Below are positions 483 through 13,153 of a stretch of 64,000 nucleotides of DNA, piece after piece (position 1 is the stretch's first letter; each line of letters starts with the position of its first letter). Origin of the DNA: Bdellovibrionales bacterium (lineage in GTDB: Bacteria; Bdellovibrionota; Bdellovibrionia; Bdellovibrionales; UBA1609); contig CBDHDF010000011.1 of assembly GCA_965261545.1 (NCBI GenBank), forward strand, positions 544,001-608,000. The letters are read 5' to 3'. A model generated the notes under the pieces. The model did no database searches. It was not told the origin of the DNA and was given only the letters and a program-made list of their open reading frames with translations. The position numbers and the translations under genes were made by a program.

Positions 483-1235
483 CTATTTTAGGGAAAAGTC
501 CTGGTCAAGTTTTGTTCCCTGGATTTTTCGATAACTCTCTCCTTTAAGTAAAATTTTTATGGCGGTATGCTTCAAACGGTCGATGATAGTATCTGCCAGC
601 ACCTCATCATCAATAATTTCTGACCAATGCGTTATTGGCAGTTGAGTGGTAATAACGGTGGACCTATCGGAACGAAACTTTAAAATATCGCAGAAGTCTG
701 TGGATTCACTTTGGGAGAACTTCCTTAATCCAAAGTCATCAAAAATTAACACTTGGGGGCGGCCCAGACGACGCAAGTAGTTCAAATACCTTCCTGAGTG
801 CCTTTCCAGGGCCAAGGTTTCTAGAAATATGTTGATGTCTATAAACAGTGTGGAGATTCTGGATTGACAACACTGGTGTCCCAGGCTCTGGGCCAAGAAG
901 GTTTTACCCACCCCCGTTGGCCCTTCGACAATGATAGACCTTTGCTCCTTAACCCATGATAAAGTTTGAAGCCTATCCACCTCTCTTTTACTAATAGACC
1001 TTTTGGCATGGTGGTCAAATGCCTCACCTCTGACCTTGTGAGGCAGCTTTGAGGTCTTGAGAAGTCTTTGGCTGAATTGGATTTTCCGAGCCTCCACTTC
1101 TGCAAATAACAGCTCGTTCAATAGATCCAATGCTTGAGTCTTGTGGCTTGTGTTATCCAGCGCCACTTCAAGGCTGTCTAACATTCCATAGAGCTTCAAC
1201 TCATGCATGTGGTTTTTGATTTGTACTTCATCCAT
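483..1235 (-). CDS. istB: IS21 helper ATPase IstB
   Basis: Walker A GPTGVGKT, Walker B LIFDDFG, C-terminal LADTIIDRL..GESYR; lies downstream of istA. Confidence 0.95.
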   Translation of the reverse strand: MDEVQIKNHMHELKLYGMLDSLEVALDNTSHKTQALDLLNELLFAEVEARKIQFSQRLLKTSKLPHKVRGEAFDHHAKRSISKREVDRLQTLSWVKEQRSIIVEGPTGVGKTFLAQSLGHQCCQSRISTLFIDINIFLETLALERHSGRYLNYLRRLGRPQVLIFDDFGLRKFSQSESTDFCDILKFRSDRSTVITTQLPITHWSEIIDDEVLADTIIDRLKHTAIKILLKGESYRKIQGTKLDQDFSLK

Positions 1236-2749
1236 CTGGCACCTCCTTGGGGCTTTGGTTATTTGGATTTTCGTTATGTCGCAAATAAGGGTTGCCTTGT
1301 TTACGATCTATTTTCTCGTTCACCTTTTTTATTTTTTGCCCTTTATAGAAATGGAGTTGTTGCTGAAAATATCTAACCCTCCTTTTCTCCCACTGCTTGC
1401 AGTCCTCAAGGGCTTTGATAATGAGAGGAAGGACTTTTCCTTGCCCTCTTTCTGGATTTCTTTGTGACAGGAGCTTACAAAGCCCTAGCTCTTCTGAGAT
1501 TTTCAATGGTCCCACCCTGAAAAAGCTCCTCAATGAAGTTTTCAAGCTCTTTACAAATCATACTTGCTTGAATAAGAATGTTCTGGGGAGTGGCCTCCTT
1601 GTAGGCGCGACTGGGCTCCGGGAGGTGTTCGTTTTTGGTGATGTACTCTCCGAGTTTACCTTTGGTCCTCTTGTGGCGAGCGAGGAGCTGTTTTTGAAAG
1701 TAAATCTCCACACTCTCCACTCCAATTTTTACATCTACATACTCCCCTCGGTGCTGAAACGGAGCCGAGTAGAAGTTGGATTCAACGCTCACATGACAGT
1801 CTTGGTGGAGTTTTTTCTTCTCCCAACGTCCCCACCGGTAGGGAAAAGAAGGCAAGGGTTTTAAAGTTTTTACCTCTCGTTGAAATTTTTCATTGCGAGA
1901 GACCTTAAATCTTGTGTGAGGGCGAGCATTTATCTTCTCGCACACCTCCCTTAAAGCCTTATTAATTTGATCCAGACTGGTGAAGGTCTCTCGTCTGTAC
2001 ATAAACCTGAGGGCCCTTGTAACGAGCTTCACGGCATTCTCAGTAAGGCTTTTATCCTGGGGACGACGAACTCGAGCGGGAACAGCCACCGTGTCATAGT
2101 GTTCCAAAAGCTCTTGGTAGGATTTATTCAACTCTGGATCATACAAATGGGGTGTGTTCACTCCAGTCTTTAAATTATCAGGAACAACCACTCTCGGAAC
2201 CCCACCGTAATATTCAAACATCAGAACGTGAGCGTGAAGAAAATCTTCACTAGATTCGCTCAAAGAGCCATAAGCAAAAATACGCTGAGAGAAACATAGA
2301 TTTGAGCAAAATATATGGGCCTTATGAATATTAAGGTCTTCATCGATCCACTCTGGCTGAAATCCTGCGTAATCAACCTCAACTTGGTGGCCTGGCTGAA
2401 AATCACGCAAGGTAATAATCCTTTTGCCAGCTTTTGGAAATTGCTTATGAAACTCCCTCGTAAACTGGGGGTAGCTAATGACCTTCAGAAATTTTTCCTC
2501 CCAAACGTCACTTAAACAATGCCTATCCTCAATCTCCTTCTCAATAATCTTCCAATCTATACCGTAAGACCAAGGGGGAATTTCTCTTTGGGTCTTCCAA
2601 TCCTTGGGGTCTGTTAAAAGACCACGTCTTATCTTTCTAAGAGTCTTGGTGCAGCATTTCATGCGGCGACTGATTTCTCGGTCGGGAATATTTGCCTTTA
2701 TTAATGATTTTATTTTTGTGTAACGCTCATGATCCATCTTTGTTCTCAT
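1228..2749 (-). pseudogene. istA: IS21 transposase IstA with frameshifted C-terminus
   Basis: rve/DDE motifs (VEVDYAG, VVPDNLKTGV, RPQDKSLTE). ATG at 2749 follows AGGAGG. Main frame stops at 1475; residual coding in another frame runs to 1228 and overlaps the istB start. Confidence 0.8.
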
Positions 2750-3545
2750 TTCGACCTCCTTGGTTAAAGATTGGAGGTCTTTATAGAACATCAATGACGC
2801 TATGCTAAGGGGAATCAGTCATGCCAATCAGTGCGGGCAATGCCATGGTTCGCCGGGCGAACTGAGATAAGATAGGGGGTTAGAGTCCCCCGAGAGGAAG
2901 GTCAACCGACCACTTCTCTCCCCAAGCCGTGCGCTGTCGGCCGTGAGGCCGAAGCGATGTATCGGTAGGGGTGTGTGTGGGCCAAATAATTGAGCGTCGA
3001 AAATGCCGAACTCTGGAGTGCGGAGGCTGTCATGGTAGCCGAACGCAACATACCCACCAGCGCTATGGTGAGTTGGTGGGTGACTCCACGGCGTCGTAGA
3101 AACTGGCACATACATGAATCTTATCTCGGGACCTCGGGAGGTCTTTATTTAACCCCGTCATGTGCGACGGGCGACATGGGAAAGGAGGTAACCGTAACCC
3201 ATGAACGAAATAAAGAAATCGGATCCACTCATAGTAGCGATGAAGAGGACGAACAAAGGGCCTACAAGCCCAGCGGAGTCCTTGGAGCGAAGGGGTGGAA
3301 CTGAAGGGAACTCAATCCGTCAAAGCATCTGCCGAACACAGAGTTGGGAAAAGGTGTCACAGGCGACGGAGCGAGTCCGTATAGCAGCAAAGAGAAAGGA
3401 TGGTAAGCTCACTTGCTTGCTTCACCATGTATCTGTGGAAGCCCTCCACTTGGCTTACCTCTATTTGAATAGGGGAGCCAGTGCGGGAGTGGACCATTTA
3501 ACATGGAAGGAGTATGGCGAGAACCTCGTGCAAAACCTGTTCGAT

Positions 3546-5180
3546 TTACATCGTCGGGTCCACACTACTCCCCGGACACAATGGCAAACTTTTGGAGGTT
3601 GGCACAACGTGTCGAACTACAATTTCACTTGCCTTAATGTTCACCTCAACCTCCTTCACCAGTAGCCTTACAATCTCCTTTTTTTGCTCAAAACTCAATA
3701 CCTTTAAATTGGCACTCACTTTTTTTTGGAATTCTTGGAGTTGATCTACAAGCTGTAGTTGTTGTCCTTCTTGCCTTTGCTCATACTCTAAAGATTGCTT
3801 TTCATTTTCAAGTTGCTTTATTTTTCCTCTTATTTTTTTTAATCGTGACTCTATTTCTGATAGATTTAGAGTTCCATTTTGATAAAGATCCAAGAGACGT
3901 TCCTTTTCATGTGTTATTTGACGAATCTCCTGAGCCTTTTTTACAATTAATTTTTCCAATGATTGTTGTTCACCTTTTTGCTCATGAATTCTACTTGTAT
4001 ACTCATCTATAACTGTCTGAGGATTTTCAAGTAATTTAACTGTTTGTTCCCAAACTAAGTCATCTAAAACTTCAACTCTTACGGGATGAGATGAGCAAAC
4101 TCTACCTTTAGCTGGCCACCTATAACCATCTTGTCCCATGCAGCGATAATAACAAAGCTTATACCTTGAGTGAGAAGCAGGTTTGCCATAGATCGAATAA
4201 CCACACTCTTTGCATCGTAAAAGACCACTTAACAAATACTCATATTTTTTATTATTCCGAGAGGAAAGTTTTTTGTTAGCTTCCAATTGGCTGGACGCAT
4301 CTTGAAAAGTTTTTGAAGAAATTATAGATGGAACGGGAATATATATCCAATCCTTTTTATTTCGATTGGAAGAACTTGATTTATGTTTTTTTGGATAAAA
4401 ATTATTGTCTCTTGCGAACTTGGTTGGACGCAACCTTTCTACCTTGATAGTCTTTCTAAAAGCAGCTTGTCCATAATAAGCGGGATTTTTAAGCATACAC
4501 AAGATAGTTGAACGCCCCCAAATACCTTGTTGTCTTCTAGTAGGCACCCCCCTTATATTTAATTCCTTTGCAATTGCTCTAATACTTAGTTTGTTTCGGC
4601 AATACATTTGAAAAATATTTTTAACAACTTTAGACTCTTCTGGATGGATTTCATATCGTGCGTCAGCGGAGTCTGTTTTCAGAATATATATATAACCATA
4701 GGGGGCTCCACATAAAACGCTAACAAAGCCCTTAGAAGCCTTTTGAAGTTTACCCCTTCGACTTCTTTCCATAATTTTTTCTCTTTCATATTCTGAAATG
4801 ACTCCTTGTATTTGTAGCAAAAGCTGATCTTCGGGTGAATTTGTAATATCTCTATTAGAAAAAATAATTTCAACACCTAGCCTCTGAAATTCTTCAATTA
4901 GAATCAATTGATGGGCATATTTACGAGCTAATCTGTCTGGACATAACACAAGTACCTTTGTAACCTCCCCAGAAAAAGCTTTGTCGCGAAGAGAGTCTAA
5001 AGCAGGACGAACAAGGGTGGCGCCACTCACACCATTATCCATAAATATAAGATCCTCCTCTACACAAAAATTGTGTTCCTTAGCGAAATCGTGAAGACTA
5101 GAAATCTGTGAATCAATGGTTCCCTCTTGAGCTTGTTTATCTGAGGACACTCGACAATAAAGAGCTACTGATGTTTCCAT
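3546..5180 (-). CDS. Large serine recombinase (resolvase + recombinase + zinc ribbon + coiled coil)
   Basis: YCRVSS catalytic motif, DRLAR, EYEREKIMER, PYGY, LLSGLLRCKECG, YYRC. The stop codon lies outside the element, in intron DNA. Confidence 0.95.
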   Translation of the reverse strand: METSVALYCRVSSDKQAQEGTIDSQISSLHDFAKEHNFCVEEDLIFMDNGVSGATLVRPALDSLRDKAFSGEVTKVLVLCPDRLARKYAHQLILIEEFQRLGVEIIFSNRDITNSPEDQLLLQIQGVISEYEREKIMERSRRGKLQKASKGFVSVLCGAPYGYIYILKTDSADARYEIHPEESKVVKNIFQMYCRNKLSIRAIAKELNIRGVPTRRQQGIWGRSTILCMLKNPAYYGQAAFRKTIKVERLRPTKFARDNNFYPKKHKSSSSNRNKKDWIYIPVPSIISSKTFQDASSQLEANKKLSSRNNKKYEYLLSGLLRCKECGYSIYGKPASHSRYKLCYYRCMGQDGYRWPAKGRVCSSHPVRVEVLDDLVWEQTVKLLENPQTVIDEYTSRIHEQKGEQQSLEKLIVKKAQEIRQITHEKERLLDLYQNGTLNLSEIESRLKKIRGKIKQLENEKQSLEYEQRQEGQQLQLVDQLQEFQKKVSANLKVLSFEQKKEIVRLLVKEVEVNIKASEIVVRHVVPTSKSLPLCPGSSVDPTM

Positions 5181-5505
5181 TTTTAACCTCCATTATTTTC
5201 TGTTGTTTTACTTTCTGCTTTAATTGTTTCTTTATTTTTGGAACAACAACTTCGTATGTCTGTTGAATCCGTGTGGTTTGGTCGCTTTGATAGACACTTT
5301 TTAGCTGAGCTGTCCATGGATTTTGATGTTTTGTTTGGTGGGCCATTATCATTCCTTTGACTATGGTTCGAAGCTAAATGGGAAGAATCCTCAGGTGGAT
5401 GCCAACGATAGTGAGCATATTTACGACCACTTGCATAAAGTGAATGATTATATATATTTATGGAAATTTCAATGGAAAAGTTGTCTATTGTGTCCGAGGA
5501 GTAAC
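3564..5505 (-). mobile_element. Minimal large-serine-recombinase integrative element (1,940 bp)
   Basis: AC core at 3564-3565 and 5504-5505. 28-bp inverted arms (TACTCCCCGGACACAATGGCAAACTTTT / reverse complement TACTCCTCGGACACAATAGACAACTTTT). Precise removal restores the RT frame. More AT-rich than the host intron. Confidence 0.92.
5137..5352 (-). CDS. Small hypothetical protein overlapping the LSR start
   Basis: 71-aa ORF overlapping the LSR ATG, an arrangement consistent with translational coupling. It resembles from memory small ORFs found upstream of similar recombinases; not verified. Confidence 0.5.
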   Translation of the reverse strand: MIMAHQTKHQNPWTAQLKSVYQSDQTTRIQQTYEVVVPKIKKQLKQKVKQQKIMEVKNGNISSSLLSSVLR

Positions 5506-6697
5506 GGGTGCTTACAAAGGGCAACCTGTCTTGCGGGTAGAAATACCCAAGTCAGACGGGGGCACAAGACCCTTGGGTGTCCTGGCCTTGGAGGACAAGA
5601 TTGTCCAGAAGGCCGTTGTAGACAGCATCCTCTCTCCCATCTACGAGGAACATTTCCTCGGTTATAGCTACGGATTCCGTCCAGGGCGTGGAGCGCATAA
5701 TGCGTTGGATGCTCTGGCTTACGGAATAGAGCGTAGAAAGATCAGCTACATATTGGATGCGGATATAAAATCCTACTTCGATAGCGTGGATAGAAAGACT
5801 CTAATTCGCTTTCTAAAACACCTCATCGGAGATGAGAGACTCATTCGTCTCTTTGAAAAGTGGCTCAAGTGCGGAGTGCTATCTCAAGGCGTCTTAGAAG
5901 ACACAGGGAGAGGGACCGTTCAAGGTTCAAATATTTCCCCTATCTTCGCCAACATATATTTACATTATGTGTTGGATTTATGGATGCAGAAATGGCGCAA
6001 GGACCATGCCACAGGGGACATGATATTTGTTCGCTACGCCGATGACTTTGTCGTAGGCTTTCAATACAAGGGGGAAGCTGAACGCTTCCTCAATGATCTG
6101 AAGCGCAGGCTTAAGGAGTTTTCTCTAGAAATACATCCGGGGAAAACTCGCCTCATAGAGTTCGGTCGATTTGCAAATGCAAATTGCCGCCGACGAGGTC
6201 TTGGTCACTCCGAGACTTTTGATTTCTTAGGATTCACTCACTTTTGTGTGCGCACGAGGAAAGGAGGCTTTAGGATAGGGCGTAAACCCATATCCAAGAG
6301 AGTCTGCCGGACCTTACAGCACCTGAAGCTGAGTCTGAGAAAACGAGTCTACACGAGGGACCTAGCGGAATGTGCAAAGTGGTTGGGTTTGGTCATCAAA
6401 GGCTGGCTCAATTATTTTGCGGTTCCAGGAAGTACGGTGTACCTACGAAAATTTATTTGCGCAATCAGGAGTGCTTGGATGAAAGCCATCCGACGACGCT
6501 CACAGCGTGGACGGAGATTCTCGTGGAAGAGGTTGGATAGAATGATTCGTCTATTCTGGCCTCGTATATCCATACGCCACCCGTGGCCAACAGATAGGTT
6601 CGCTATGCGGTACCACCTGAAGTAGGAGCCGGATGCTTTAACGAGCACGTCCGGATCTGTGCGGGGGGTGCGTGGCAACACGCATTCCTACCGTAAC

Positions 6698-6835
6698 CAA
6701 CTGGTGCGGGCAATGCCATGCAACTGGTGCGGGCAATGCCATGCAACTGGTGAGGGTAATGCCATGCAACTGGTGAGGGTAATGCCATGCAACTGGTGAG
6801 GGTAATGTCATGCAATCGGTGAGGGCAATGCCATG
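6698..6835 (+). repeat. Six tandem 23-bp IS21 terminal repeats (consensus CAACTGGTG[AC]GGG[CT]AATGCCATG); a seventh unit at 2825-2847
   Basis: Read directly. Units abut with no spacers, lie against the IS21 end and resemble the opposite end (353-400). Confidence 0.95.
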
Positions 6836-7053
6836 CAATTTTACATTCATAATGGATAGCATCCCCCTTTTTGTTGCGGGGCTCTATCAGAAATTTAGGA
6901 AGCAGATAAAGTTGCTGATGAAGATTTCAATGGAGAAGAGGAGGCACTTCAAAAGAAGCTATGAAAGGTCTATCAAAAGGGCTGGGAGTTCTTTTAAAAG
7001 AAATAGCTTAACGCAGAGGCAGAGGGGTGTGGTGGCTTAAGGAAACGGCATTG

Positions 7054-7154: not shown

Positions 7155-8335
7155 CAAAAAAATGGAAATTCCAATCTCATCAAAGGGTTCATGTGTTTAG
7201 GTTCCCATACTATATTACCCCCTTTTTTTATTTTTTTTAACTTGGGATATTCGAGAAATACCAGCATTGGGATGAAATATGAAAAAAAATGGAAACCCAA
7301 GTCTGCACCAAGAGGGCATGTATTTAGGTTCCCATACTATATTACCCTAACCATAGTCTCGTATTCCAGCATTTCTCAACGCCTTAGAGCCCTCTTATAA
7401 GGGGACCTTATTTATTAAAAAACTTAGTTGTCAAAACGGTCACCGTATTCAATGGCAAACCTGTTCATGGCTGGCTTCCAGTTGTGTAATGGTCGTGTCC
7501 ATCGCTTAGAGGCCATTTTTATCGCTAAATATACAACTTTTAAAGCCGACCGATCACTGGGAAATATCTTACGATTTCTGATCGCCTTGCGGATCACGCT
7601 ATTTAACGACTCTATGGCGTTTGTGGTATAAAAAATCTTTCTGATTTCATCCGGATAATCGAAAATAGTGATGAGATTGTCCCAATTCCTACGCCAAGAC
7701 TTTTCAATATTCGGATACTTTGAAGACCACTTGGTACAAAATTCCTCAAGGGCCTTTTCAGCTTCTGTCAGAGTCGTAGAGCCATAAATGGACTTGAGGT
7801 CTTGGGCGACAGCTTTCATATTCTTGGAAGGAACATAGCGAAGGGAATTGCGGACCATATGGACAATGCACAGTTGTACTTTAGACTTGGGAAAAGCCGC
7901 TGAAATGGCTTGAGGAAAACCTGTAAGACCATCTACAGAAAATATAAATACGTCTTTCAACCCTCGATTTTGCAGCTCAGTCAAAACACTCAACCAAAAC
8001 TTTGAACCCTCATTTTCAGAAATCCATAGGCCCAACAAGTCTTTCTGACCCTCCTCTGTAATACCAAGAGCTAGGTAAATCGCCTTATTAATAACTCTCT
8101 TGTCTTGATGGACCTTCACCACGATACAGTCCAAAAATACGATAGGGTAAGTGCTATCCAAGGGGCGGTTCTGCCAAGCCGTAACTTCATCAATAACAGC
8201 ATCCGTCACGTTGGCTATCACTGAGTGGGATATCTCTGCACCATGGTAAAGGTCTTTGATAGCTCCTTGAATATCCCTGGTCGTCATTCCCCTCGCATAG
8301 AGGGTCAGAATACTGTCTTCAAAGCCCTCAAGACG

Positions 8336-9752
8336 CAATGCCGTTTCCTTAAGCCACCACACCCCTCTGCCTCTGCGTTAAGCTATTTCTTTTAAAAGAA
8401 CTCCCAGCGCTTTTGATAGACCTTTCATAGCTTCTTTTGAAGTGCCTCCTCTTCTCCATTGAAATCTTCATCAGCAACTTTATCTGCTTCCTAAATTTCT
8501 GATAGAGCCCCGCAACAAAAAGAGGGATGCTATCCATTATGAAATCAAGAATCAGTTTAAAGTTAGGTTTTTTGTAGTCATTTTTTACCAACTGATTCAC
8601 ACTGTCTTCATCCTCATTTATGCTCATTTGAATCTTTGTATAATTGAAGAGCCAAAAATAAGAATACAGCTCTTGCAATATTCCATTAAGGCTTGTTGAG
8701 TGCCACTGCTCCATTTTCATTGTCGATGTAAAATCACGAAATGTCGTTTCTATTTCCCAACGACGAGAGTAAAGAGCAACCATATCCTTCTTGTCCAAGG
8801 AGCCATGCGGAAGATTAGTGGCCAAAACAGAGAACTCCCCAGTCTTTGGGTTTTTATACTTATAGAGATGAATGACCACCCCCTCAATAACCATTTGTGA
8901 ATACCAACCTGGGCCATTAAATAAATTTACGATGGGGATAAAAGTAGAGCCTCGCTTACAACGCGCAATAAAGAAGTTACTGGCTTGAGCATGGGCCTTA
9001 ATAATCTCTGTAGATAAATAAAGCCTATCGTAGAGAGTTATGCTATTACTCTCAAAACTACCTATCATTTGAATAGCATTGGCGATTTCGTTGAGAGCGG
9101 GAGAAAAGCAAAGATTCTTTGTCACACCCGATAAAACGTCATAAGCATGAGATAGATACATACGTAAGAAATGAGTTTCCATCTCATTTGGGCAAGGGTA
9201 CCCACAATAACCCTCCTTTAAAAGATCTTTAGAGCGAGGAAGTGCTAATTGGTCGCCATCTATGGCATAGATATAAAAACCATGAAACGTTTTTCTCAAT
9301 GGTTCGTAGTCTGTAATCAGAGATTCAAAGATATCTTTGAAAAATAGGTAAGAAATACTTTGACGTATCTTGCTGAGACTGCTTTTGACTGGCATGAGAA
9401 GCAGGTCACCAAAATGAGTCCATACCGTCTTAAGAGCGATTTGGTAGCCTTCGTAATTTGTTCCGGAAATAAGATAGATAATGGTAAAAAAGAAAATTTG
9501 AGGATTAAATTTTCGATTCCTTTTTTGTTTTTCTGGATCGACAAGGTGCTCTGGCTTGAAGGAAGAATCAAGTTTTGGTAGAATAAAATGGTCATCTGTG
9601 ACGCGAACTCGTCATTTGGGGGCTTTCGAGATCAATATTGGATTGCATGTGACTTACTCCTTGGTTGAGGGTTGGGTGTAAAATAAAACAAGTCTTATTC
9701 TTGTCGATTTATCTAATGATTTCAAGAGATTTTTCTTAAGGAAACGGCATTG
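8336..9752 (-). mobile_element. IS4-family IS-A copy 2, complete (1,417 bp)
   Basis: Perfect 18-bp IR CAATGCCGTTTCCTTAAG at both ends. 10-bp TSD CCTCAAGACG at 8326-8335 and 9753-9762. Confidence 0.96.
8349..9395 (-). CDS. IS4-family transposase (true N-terminus probably further upstream)
   Basis: AIDG, YDRLY and YSRRWEIETTFR motifs. The frame stays open upstream to about 9611. Confidence 0.9.
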   Translation of the reverse strand: MPVKSSLSKIRQSISYLFFKDIFESLITDYEPLRKTFHGFYIYAIDGDQLALPRSKDLLKEGYCGYPCPNEMETHFLRMYLSHAYDVLSGVTKNLCFSPALNEIANAIQMIGSFESNSITLYDRLYLSTEIIKAHAQASNFFIARCKRGSTFIPIVNLFNGPGWYSQMVIEGVVIHLYKYKNPKTGEFSVLATNLPHGSLDKKDMVALYSRRWEIETTFRDFTSTMKMEQWHSTSLNGILQELYSYFWLFNYTKIQMSINEDEDSVNQLVKNDYKKPNFKLILDFIMDSIPLFVAGLYQKFRKQIKLLMKISMEKRRHFKRSYERSIKSAGSSFKRNSLTQRQRGVVA

Positions 9753-11006: not shown

Positions 11007-13153
11007 GTTCCTGTCCAGGGAAGAAAGTTAAGTAGTTTTAAGTATTTACATGCCTTCCCTTTAGATTTTATGCTTTAAAATGGAGTCCATCAAACATAAT
11101 CCGTGTAAATTCAGTTACTTACATAAAACGGAAAAATAAAATAAGTTCCCCCCCCCCTCTCTTGACGAACCTTTCACAGCCCCTCCCTTTCAGTGACTTA
11201 TGTGGCTATCAACTGGTTACTTGATATGAGAGGAAGAGTTGGATCAACCTGTGTTTCCACCGTGGTGATTTCAAACCTCCTTCAGGGAAATAACATTACG
11301 TTGCGCATCAACTTCAAAAAATACTTGACGTGTTTTTTCAGAGAAATAATTTTTGATATTTTATTCTTCATTTATTTTTTATGTAGGTTTTAGGAGGCGT
11401 GGGAACCTCTCTATGAGGTAGAATTCTTATCCATGTTCTCCGAGAACCTCTCTGATTTTTTTCTTCTTAAAAGACATCCTTGCTCACTTTTTTCCCTCAA
11501 AAAAACGTATGTTAATATAAAAATTAAAGAGAAACTTTCACCAAAGGGGGGACTATGCGCCATTTGAAGAAGACACAGTTGGGACTCTTTTCCCAATATC
11601 CTAACCACCAACTCAGTACAGAATTGCAGCAAATTAATAACATCATTGATCGCCATCCAGAGTTTGCCCATATGGTTCATGAAGACCTTGTTAAAGAAAA
11701 GAAAGATTCTGGTGATATTGGTATGACATCGGAGCAAGTTCTCAAGGTGGCTATTCTTAAATCCATAAGAGGTCTTTCCTATCGTGCGTTAGCCTTTAAT
11801 CTTGTCGATTCAGTATCCACCAGAGCTTTTCTGGGCCTTGAATTGGAAGAAAATTACGCTCACTCCACCTTACAGGACTTGATTGTTCAAATAAGTGAAG
11901 AAACTTGGGGAATTATTAGCGCCTCTTTAGTTTCAGATGCAAGAGATCAAAAGATTGAGCCGTGTAAGAAAATGAGATTGGACAGTACAGTGACGAAATC
12001 AAATATTCATCATCCAACGGATGCATCCCTTTTATATGACTGCATAAGAGTTACAGAAAGAGAATTTAAAAAAGTTCGTAAAAATGTCATGAAAGATTTT
12101 TGGCGACTTATTTCAAGAGAAGATCTTAAGAGAGCAAAAACCTTGCTTTACAAAATTAATAATTCCAAAAATGATGCGGAAAGACTACCTTGCTATAAGG
12201 AGCTTTTAAAAATCGCTACCAAATTGAACAAAGGATTACCTGATACCATCAGAAAGATAAAAAAAGAACAAAAATGTGTGAAGATGAATGCTTTGAAAAA
12301 GAGTCTAAAACAGTTAGAAAATGTTGCCTTCTACCTGGAAAAAATCATCTTTCAAACTCAAAAAAGAGTTATTGAGGGGAAAAAAGTATCTTCTGAAAAA
12401 AAGGTCCTATCCATCTTTGAACCGCATACAGACATTATTGTAAAGGGGCAAAGAGAAGTCGAGTTTGGGCATAAAATCTTTTTGACCTCAGGGCAAAGCA
12501 ACATGATTTTAGATTGTCAGATCCCTGATGGCAACCCCGCAGACTCTGATATGTTTTTAAAAGTTATGAATTCAGTGACACAAACCTATGGGGCTTGCCC
12601 TGTAAAAGTAAGTGCAGATGGTGGGTTTGCTTCAAAAGAAAATCTTGAAGAGGCCAAAGAGATGGGGGCTAAAGATGTTTGCTTCCCAGAAAAAAAAGGA
12701 ATGAAAATATTAAAGATGGTTAAAAGTGCTTGGGTCTTTAAAAATCTTCTCAATTGGAGAGCCGGAATAGAGGCTGTTATTTCATTCCTTAAGAGATGTT
12801 TTGGTATGAGAGTTGCTTACTGGAAAGGGCATGATGGTTTTAAGAGGTATGTAAAGAATGCCGTTTGTGCCTATAATTTTGTTGTCTTGGCAAGACATGA
12901 ATTATCAACTGTCACCTAAATTTATCCATTAGGAATAACAGCAATGGACCAGGTCGAAGGTGCTAAAATCTTCCAAAGGTAGGGGTGCGTCTTCAAATCG
13001 AAAAAACTAGGGCGCAAGTCGCTTAAAGACCTTTTTCCCCTTAATCTGTAGAGTTTGTGTGGCAAATCTCCAACTCTCACTCCCCCATTGAGGCATTGGG
13101 AGGCTCAATGGGGAGTGTCAGAGAACAAAAAATGGGCCTTTCTGGACAGAAAC
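11007..13153 (+). mobile_element. IS5/ISNCY-like insertion sequence, complete (2,147 bp)
   Basis: IRs GTTCCTGTCCAG / CTGGACAGAAAC. 6-bp TSD TATCTA at 11001-11006 and 13154-13159. Confidence 0.88.
11555..12919 (+). CDS. IS5/ISNCY-like DDE transposase
   Basis: RLDSTVTKSNIHHPTDASLL, EFGHK, SADGGF and RAGIEAVISFLKR motifs. Confidence 0.9.
   Translation: MRHLKKTQLGLFSQYPNHQLSTELQQINNIIDRHPEFAHMVHEDLVKEKKDSGDIGMTSEQVLKVAILKSIRGLSYRALAFNLVDSVSTRAFLGLELEENYAHSTLQDLIVQISEETWGIISASLVSDARDQKIEPCKKMRLDSTVTKSNIHHPTDASLLYDCIRVTEREFKKVRKNVMKDFWRLISREDLKRAKTLLYKINNSKNDAERLPCYKELLKIATKLNKGLPDTIRKIKKEQKCVKMNALKKSLKQLENVAFYLEKIIFQTQKRVIEGKKVSSEKKVLSIFEPHTDIIVKGQREVEFGHKIFLTSGQSNMILDCQIPDGNPADSDMFLKVMNSVTQTYGACPVKVSADGGFASKENLEEAKEMGAKDVCFPEKKGMKILKMVKSAWVFKNLLNWRAGIEAVISFLKRCFGMRVAYWKGHDGFKRYVKNAVCAYNFVVLARHELSTVT

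Follow-up and report, generated by a model that had tools for sequence, protein, structure and literature searches.

How serine integrases choose their direction is an open question, also for elements that carry no obvious regulator. In the integration-dependent immunity of mycobacteriophage BPs, recombination at attP changes the C-terminus of a protein and with it the behaviour of that protein. The "suicidal" archaeal integrases of the SSV type (SSV1, pTN3, pT26-2) have the recombination site inside the recombinase gene itself, and the pieces left by integration are inactive (PMC8371274, in the part of the text that was accessible). For the large serine integrases, the accessible part of PMC12286644 reports that verified RDFs bind the junction between DBD2 and the coiled coil (DBD2-CC), most of them adding a strand there; that the extra C-terminal strands of SCCmec LSRs could block this RDF site; and that 4 of 11 predicted RDFs were inactive. 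The locus described here represents a family of compact, IS-like large serine recombinase (LSR) elements that insert into the RT genes of group II introns and carry attP inside the 3' end of the recombinase gene.

The window analysed is a 64,000-nt stretch of DNA from a Bdellovibrionales bacterium, and coordinates refer to it unless a contig is given. It contains a host group II intron at 2848-6697 on the + strand (Rfam RF02005 at 2882-3103; RVT_1), whose RT gene is split into 3201-3565 and 5506-6625 by 1,940 bp, made up of an element of 1,938 bp (3566-5503) and an AC core. This 2-bp crossover core (AC on the + strand, GT on the - strand) is present at 3564-3565, downstream of the LSR gene (left junction GTCCAC/AC/TACTCC), and again at 5504-5505 at the upstream junction (right junction GGAGTA/AC/GGGTGC), with one copy in the empty site. 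Deletion of 3566-5505 in silico yields an intact 495-aa RT with a single terminal stop, and the corresponding joint (3563->5504, a skip of 1,940 bp) is present in all four sequencing runs of one sample. The genome holds four empty (1,910 bp) and four filled (3,850 bp) full-length copies of the intron, a count that leaves out a ninth 5' end without a paired 3' end. The element is bounded by terminal inverted arms of 28 bp that are 86% complementary (inverted repeat I1, at 3566-3593 and 5476-5503, both listed on the - strand), and the upstream end is identical in all copies. The 2-bp core, the inverted att arms that flank it and the precise empty site are all as in other large serine recombinases.

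The intron is itself lodged within the 23-bp terminal repeats of an IS21 element (istA/istB), giving a triple nesting of IS21, intron and LSR element at 483-6846. Filled introns occupy two or more distinct repeat units, so either the broken intron can perhaps still be mobilised in trans or the element hit the same site twice. More transposase-like ORFs lie nearby (10-459, 7424-9395 and 11555-12919), and repeated elements are very abundant in the genome. Two further, distant LSRs are also encoded there (C11:177120-178706 and C11:892901-894394, 23-25% identity), one of which is present about seven times, in near-identical form, within a different repeated element. None of 60 relatives of the host matched the element at 1e-40, and among 400 genomes of the phylum a match was found in one.

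In its integrated form the LSR gene occupies 3546-5180 (- strand) and encodes 544 aa. The protein scores above cut-off for Resolvase (PF00239), Recombinase (PF07508) and Zn_ribbon_recom (PF13408); residues Y8, V11 and S12 of the N-terminal catalytic region are invariant across 40 homologs, and the structure model matches the solved integrases of Bxb1, phiC31 and LI, which are named in the PDB entry titles, together with one that we take to be the SPbeta integrase. The attP arm at 3566-3593 lies within the 3' end of the gene and encodes a family-conserved ..LCPGS. The initial annotation had pointed out that the LSR lacks a stop of its own, and ORF reading confirms that the integrated protein ends in VDPTM, within intron DNA. 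An alignment of 120 homologs holds up to the PLCxGS-like motif (scored in 112 of the 120) and then gives way to unrelated tails, which differ even among members of single 90% clusters. As judged from the alignment, the missing stop is a family-wide trait.

The excised circle, it had been claimed, would encode a single protein of 645 aa in 1,938 of its 1,940 nt, with the stop placed 2 nt before the LSR ATG; recomputation returns the same frame. The suspicion that the 106-codon open frame past attP is non-random is upheld as well (P = 6.6e-4 from base composition; 28 of 20,000 dinucleotide shuffles open), the computed stop spacing being 15.0 codons rather than the roughly 14 first estimated. Also as described earlier, a small ORF overlaps the extension in the +1 frame. 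This ORF, at 5137-5346 on the - strand, encodes 69 aa from its second ATG (71 from 5352) and overlaps the LSR start. The spacing of the stop deserves less weight. The TAA (5185-5183) stands directly behind the Shine-Dalgarno-like GGAGG of the LSR (5187-5191, - strand; GGA GGT TAA), and many distant relatives also stop just before the ATG in frames unconnected to attP; the exact 2-nt spacing on its own is therefore weak evidence. Neither the extension nor the small ORF has a significant match in Pfam or NCBIfam, and the best ESM Atlas match (0.80) is to hypothetical proteins and serves as a lead only. The RNA fold of the upstream region is ordinary (z -1.26).

A 97%-identical copy of the element, variant B, is found at other sites in the genome (G000 C7:146915-151829, C10:10001-10146, C10:793053-794990 and C11:871157-873094), where it targets the RT motif of other introns. 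Where its ends are regular, variant B has the identical 645-aa circle frame; each of the seven differences upstream changes an amino acid of that frame, a number too small to weigh. An extra A in two variant-B upstream ends would put the circle out of frame. Flanks seem to have been exchanged between the C7 and C10 copies, and left and right cores are frequently mismatched.

The relatives of the element allow the circle frame to be scored beyond a single genome. Both arms were resolved at 55 of the 96 loci examined; the other 41 are cut by contig ends, lack the motif or have an arm score below the cut-off. (Ten plasmid loci and three additional MAG loci were treated apart; in nine of these the arms and the LSR-frame left-end peptide are readable.) The LSR is open through the arm end in 54 of the 55 elements, the junction codon is a stop in none of the 55 (one of them incomplete), and in 55 of the 96 loci the LSR frame runs on across the in-silico attP, without a shift, into a left-end peptide of at least 18 codons. 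The extension spans 18-31 codons in the far clade (47/47), 30-32 in the mid clade (three elements) and 56-106 in the near clade (five elements, including variant B), which forms one well-supported group in a quick tree. The peptide consensus is DSxNAKDNFEFERx in the far clade and YSxxTIDxFS..H.LY..GRK...RW in the near clade (in alignment A6, 2 of 12 peptide rows are misplaced). Had the open frame been fortuitous, homologous circles should run into stops at random positions soon after attP, a check put forward at the outset; when they were scored, a stop fell within codons 1-18 in 0 of 47 distant elements, versus 31 and 44 of them when the two remaining forward frames were read. The proposal of a state-dependent C-terminus is supported across the family and proves more general than the window copy alone. 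The claim that the whole circle is one ORF survives in part: it holds in the near clade, where five of seven elements stop no more than 9 nt from, or overlapping, the LSR ATG, and in two alphaproteobacterial plasmid copies, but not in 50 of the 55 circularised elements, which stop after 18-32 codons, 230-542 nt ahead of the ATG. In a separate alphaproteobacterial clade, the long left-end frame of L183 and L187 ends 3 nt before the LSR ATG; in L184, of the same clade, the left-end frame is interrupted and the LSR is annotated short.

The flanks of these elements point to a common target. Of 110 flanks, 102 were long enough to score, and 89 of the 110 carry one half of the RT motif PQGxx-x-SPLL, always divided at an identical position; the window copy is inserted at a different RT position. 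In using this conserved RT motif as attB, the family is parasitic on group II introns. Insertions at the RT motif PQG..SP are seen in L001, L016, L022, L024, a subset of L028-L100, L179 and L180. Both flanks are often the same half of the motif, a pattern that points to inversions, to swapped flanks or to chimeric assembly. The order on complete plasmids of Bradyrhizobium elkanii and Mesorhizobium is an RT half, a ribbon-helix-helix gene, the LSR and an RT half. In the far clade (for example L029, L034, L047 and L060), the peptide stop often falls, by eye, at or just before a TTGACA-like hexamer, with a TATAAT-like sequence about 17 nt further on; this pair precedes the ribbon-helix-helix gene, a gene that the near clade lacks.

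A protein that reads through the junction is represented in relatives of the element. The far-clade peptide profile matched 428 proteins, and among the 150 matches listed one, P0191, joins an LSR C-terminus to the peptide, the remainder being host read-throughs. P0191 is a 107-aa fragment from a distant relative, encoded on a 27,862-nt contig; used as a query it returned 26 proteins, one of which, P0304, is a full-length LSR of 582 aa with the peptide, on a 2,568-nt contig. By the sequence of these two proteins, the junction exists in assemblies, and its source could be a circle, a tandem copy or a misassembly. For the near clade, no junction-form protein was present among 17 matches or the 112 scored homologs. 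The circle joint of the window element was found neither in contigs from four runs of one sample, in which rare forms are dropped, nor in the genome, and the attP-junction DNA pattern had no match in 188 loci or in viral contigs.

Whether the peptide is maintained as a protein can be judged from the pattern of substitution. (The pN/pS values are uncorrected Nei-Gojobori proportions, and related elements are not independent, so that p-values are overstated.) For codons 9-18, past the arm, pN/pS was computed over 23 disjoint pairs of far-clade elements. It is 0.37 in the LSR frame, versus 1.32 and 1.28 in the two alternative forward frames and 1.07, 1.33 and 0.58 in those of the reverse strand. 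In the arm itself it is 1.94, which argues for constraint at the level of DNA, as expected of a protein-binding site. In the near clade, codons 9-27 range from 0.38 (three disjoint pairs) to 0.58 (15 pairs), versus 1.1-1.9 in other frames. Among representatives of less than 75% identity, 0 of 29 have a stop in codons 1-18, versus 20 and 26 in the other frames, and beyond the arm change is biased to the third position (entropy 1.18/0.98/1.55 by codon position). Two other sources of this selection were considered and ruled out: read-through from the host RT, whose frame enters one base off in insertions with the PQG half upstream of the element, and an internal start, as an in-frame start codon lies within codons 1-9 in only 5 of 55 elements. 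Because in-frame starts are rare and RT enters out of frame, attP is the sole constant in-frame source of the peptide. Taken together, these comparisons indicate that the head peptide is selected as protein, and that only about the first 35 codons of the extension are conserved as such. In the window this head lies at 5399-5503 on the - strand (YSxxTIDxFS..H.LY..GRKY..YRW in alignments A2 and A4), its first 8 or so codons being the att arm. A functional, circle-only head is very likely.

The same data bear on the view that the open frame is a by-product of constraints on the DNA (the att arm, a promoter, the overlap with the small ORF) and that the junction protein is functionless. This does describe the arm codons, with their pN/pS of 1.94, and the amino acids of the tail (1.26, see below). 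One weak promoter-like site is situated inside the head (5472-5444, 9 of 12) among the 10 that a promoter scan returned, versus 4.9 in shuffles, and the absence of a circle joint for the window element in the four runs of one sample is in keeping with it too. Beyond the arm, however, the low pN/pS and third-position bias speak against a by-product, as do the 29 divergent representatives free of early stops and the closure of the small-ORF shadow frame in 21 of 23 far elements. For the head, the substitution patterns largely refute this view, and for the extension as a whole it is very improbable.

The remainder of the long near-clade extension is of another kind. Its last 70 or so residues (in the window about 70 codons plus the TAA, 5183-5398, - strand) are not conserved as protein, pN/pS being 1.26 over the 26-codon overlap core versus 0.47 in the small-ORF frame, yet they are kept stop-free. 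In the window tail, T is used at 0 of 7 sites where it would make a stop, versus 9 of 19 safe sites. The shadow frame of the small ORF is open in four of five near-clade elements versus 2 of 23 in the far clade, and stop-making T sites are used at 4 of 38 positions in the near clade versus 51 of 169 in the far clade (within the near clade alone, the comparison of stop-making with safe T, 4/38 versus 26/118, is not significant, p=0.16). Synonymous recoding leaves the shadow frame open in 0.0006-0.14 of trials for six loci, excluding the window copy and L027; variant B, which stands in for the window copy, gives 0.00055. Two near-clade tails close early, those of L022 (56 codons) and L027 (57 codons). 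Read-through ORFs from a search that covered proteins of at least 82 aa number 17, of which nine (94-116 aa) end in GG plus 2-5 residues, three are of 84-88 aa and five of 56-80 aa, some of the short ones perhaps being cut by contig ends. We conclude, with moderate confidence, that the tail is probably selected for an open frame and not for a domain.

A frame kept open up to the start codon would suit a translational role, in which the one-ORF circle and stop-restart coupling lead to repeated LSR synthesis or shield the transcript across attP. The five near-clade stops at or over the ATG fit this role, as do the nine read-through ORFs with GG endings and the similar endings of L183 and L187; no terminator-like site is present in 3450-5620 (0, versus 1.4 in shuffles). 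But 50 of the 55 elements stop hundreds of nucleotides ahead of the ATG, coupling has no need of a head selected as protein, and the position of the stop follows from its Shine-Dalgarno context. As the function of the extension, a translational role is unlikely.

Structure models suggest what the head might do instead. The final confident strand in the model of the 544-aa LSR is 519-524. Most solved LSRs align to about residue 525 and three phiC31 chains to 560; in these models the canonical LSR fold is complete before attP. In the model of P0304 (pTM 0.39), a disordered linker with a pLDDT below 50 is followed by a strand at the circle-only residues 563-568 (block pLDDT 72), a part of the protein that none of the solved structures reach. 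The small ORF is conserved across clades as a strand plus a helix. Its residues 1-47, modelled with LSR residues 310-538, score 0.77 versus 0.02 for the best of three controls (of 157 solved pairs 116 pass the mark for this score, as do 2 of 215 mismatched ones; the mark holds only roughly here); the runs share at least 90% of contacts, and the pLDDT of the partner is 71-72. The modelled interface on the LSR comprises 371-397, 484-509 and 518-528, where residues 9-20 of the small protein would pair with LSR strand 518-528 and its helix would sit at the base of the coiled coil. Binding at the DBD2-coiled-coil junction with an added strand, as in verified RDFs, is thus what the model predicts for the small protein, although the high score may reflect likeness to solved integrase-RDF complexes. 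On these models, the small ORF is probably an RDF. The strand of the small protein, LEYxFDRL, resembles the far-clade circle peptide NFEFERxL when judged by eye, a possible mimicry.

These models suggest a mechanism. In the integrated state, the enzyme would have the whole canonical LSR fold, a short tail taken from the host and a free edge strand, and the small protein could bind the DBD2 edge strand and the coiled-coil junction, acting as an RDF to bring about excision. In the circle, the ORF would cross attP and the enzyme would gain the selected peptide of 18-35 residues with its beta strand, which most likely pairs with the same DBD2 edge in cis and excludes the RDF, so that attP x attB integration would be favoured. 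In the near clade, to which the window element belongs, the open frame probably carries ribosomes across the start of the RDF gene and links them to re-initiation at the LSR; the amino-acid sequence of the tail seems to matter little. The suggestion in the initial annotation that the two isoforms could set directionality receives indirect backing from the P0304 strand model, the small-ORF complex and the accessible part of PMC12286644. We consider it somewhat probable that the strand present only in the circle form fills the RDF site in cis, so that the state of the DNA sets direction. A fuller version can be put forward tentatively: the circle enzyme would be integration-only, an RDF-mimicking strand would block the site, and the frame would cross the RDF gene and return ribosomes to the LSR start, all in the absence of a regulator and in a widespread IS family living on intron RT genes.

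The head might alternatively serve folding, stability, synapsis or the recognition of attB (the RT motif), the integrated form being weaker or short-lived and transposition thereby kept low. Evidence of selection on the head would be identical in this case, and host-derived tails, being random, could destabilise the protein. However, the canonical fold is already complete before attP, the model places an RDF-like partner on the free edge strand immediately upstream of the junction, and the small-protein strand resembles the far-clade peptide by eye; we consider such a role doubtful. For the idea that a C-terminal strand blocks the RDF site, the family is a natural and genetically separable test case. 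For LSR mining there would be a practical consequence: genome annotation records the integrated form, host-derived tail included, and cloning that ORF would omit the native C-terminus of the circle.

The element can now be set against related systems. Membership in IS607 was rejected (NF033518, 41 bits versus a cut-off of 110; a protein of 544 aa with LSR domains), as was membership in the SCCmec Ccr group (CcrB, the best NCBIfam match, 138.9 bits, and CcrC, 102.5, versus a cut-off of 900). In CcrA/B/C the extra C-terminal strands are permanent, as far as the accessible text goes, whereas the strand of the present element is added only by excision. The multi-targeting elements described in PMC10083194 (Durrant et al. 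2023) are, in the accessible part of the text, mobile elements that, like the present one, encode an LSR and accept relaxed targets or a whole gene family; that part and eight supplementary files mention no RT or intron-gene targets and, for the terms used, no att sites inside an LSR gene. The accessible parts of PMC13137831 and PMC9203015 likewise hold no description of an att-in-LSR arrangement or of RT targeting. A search of the literature, with most subscription papers and the IS databases outside its range, found no description of the arrangement. In phage BPs the truncated protein is the repressor, and integration is carried out by a tyrosine recombinase; here the recombinase itself gains a tail. 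With SPbeta SprA/SprB, Bxb1, phiC31 and Listeria LI/A118 Int, the element has in common three domains, the fold and a 2-bp core between inverted arms, and, as with large serine integrases and their RDFs, the modelled small neighbour sits at the DBD2-coiled-coil junction and adds a strand. Unlike them, it is about 2 kb long and has no phage genes, its attP sits within the 3' end of the recombinase gene itself, and circularisation appends a selected peptide to the canonical C-terminus. An att site inside the recombinase gene, with a gene that differs between episome and integrated form, is shared with the SSV-type integrases in so far as these are described in the accessible text, but membership in that group was rejected, since the enzyme is a serine and not a tyrosine recombinase and its canonical fold ends before attP. 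The element is a real, family-wide variant of att-in-gene switching, a theme in which an att site inside the recombinase gene itself was already known from the SSV type.
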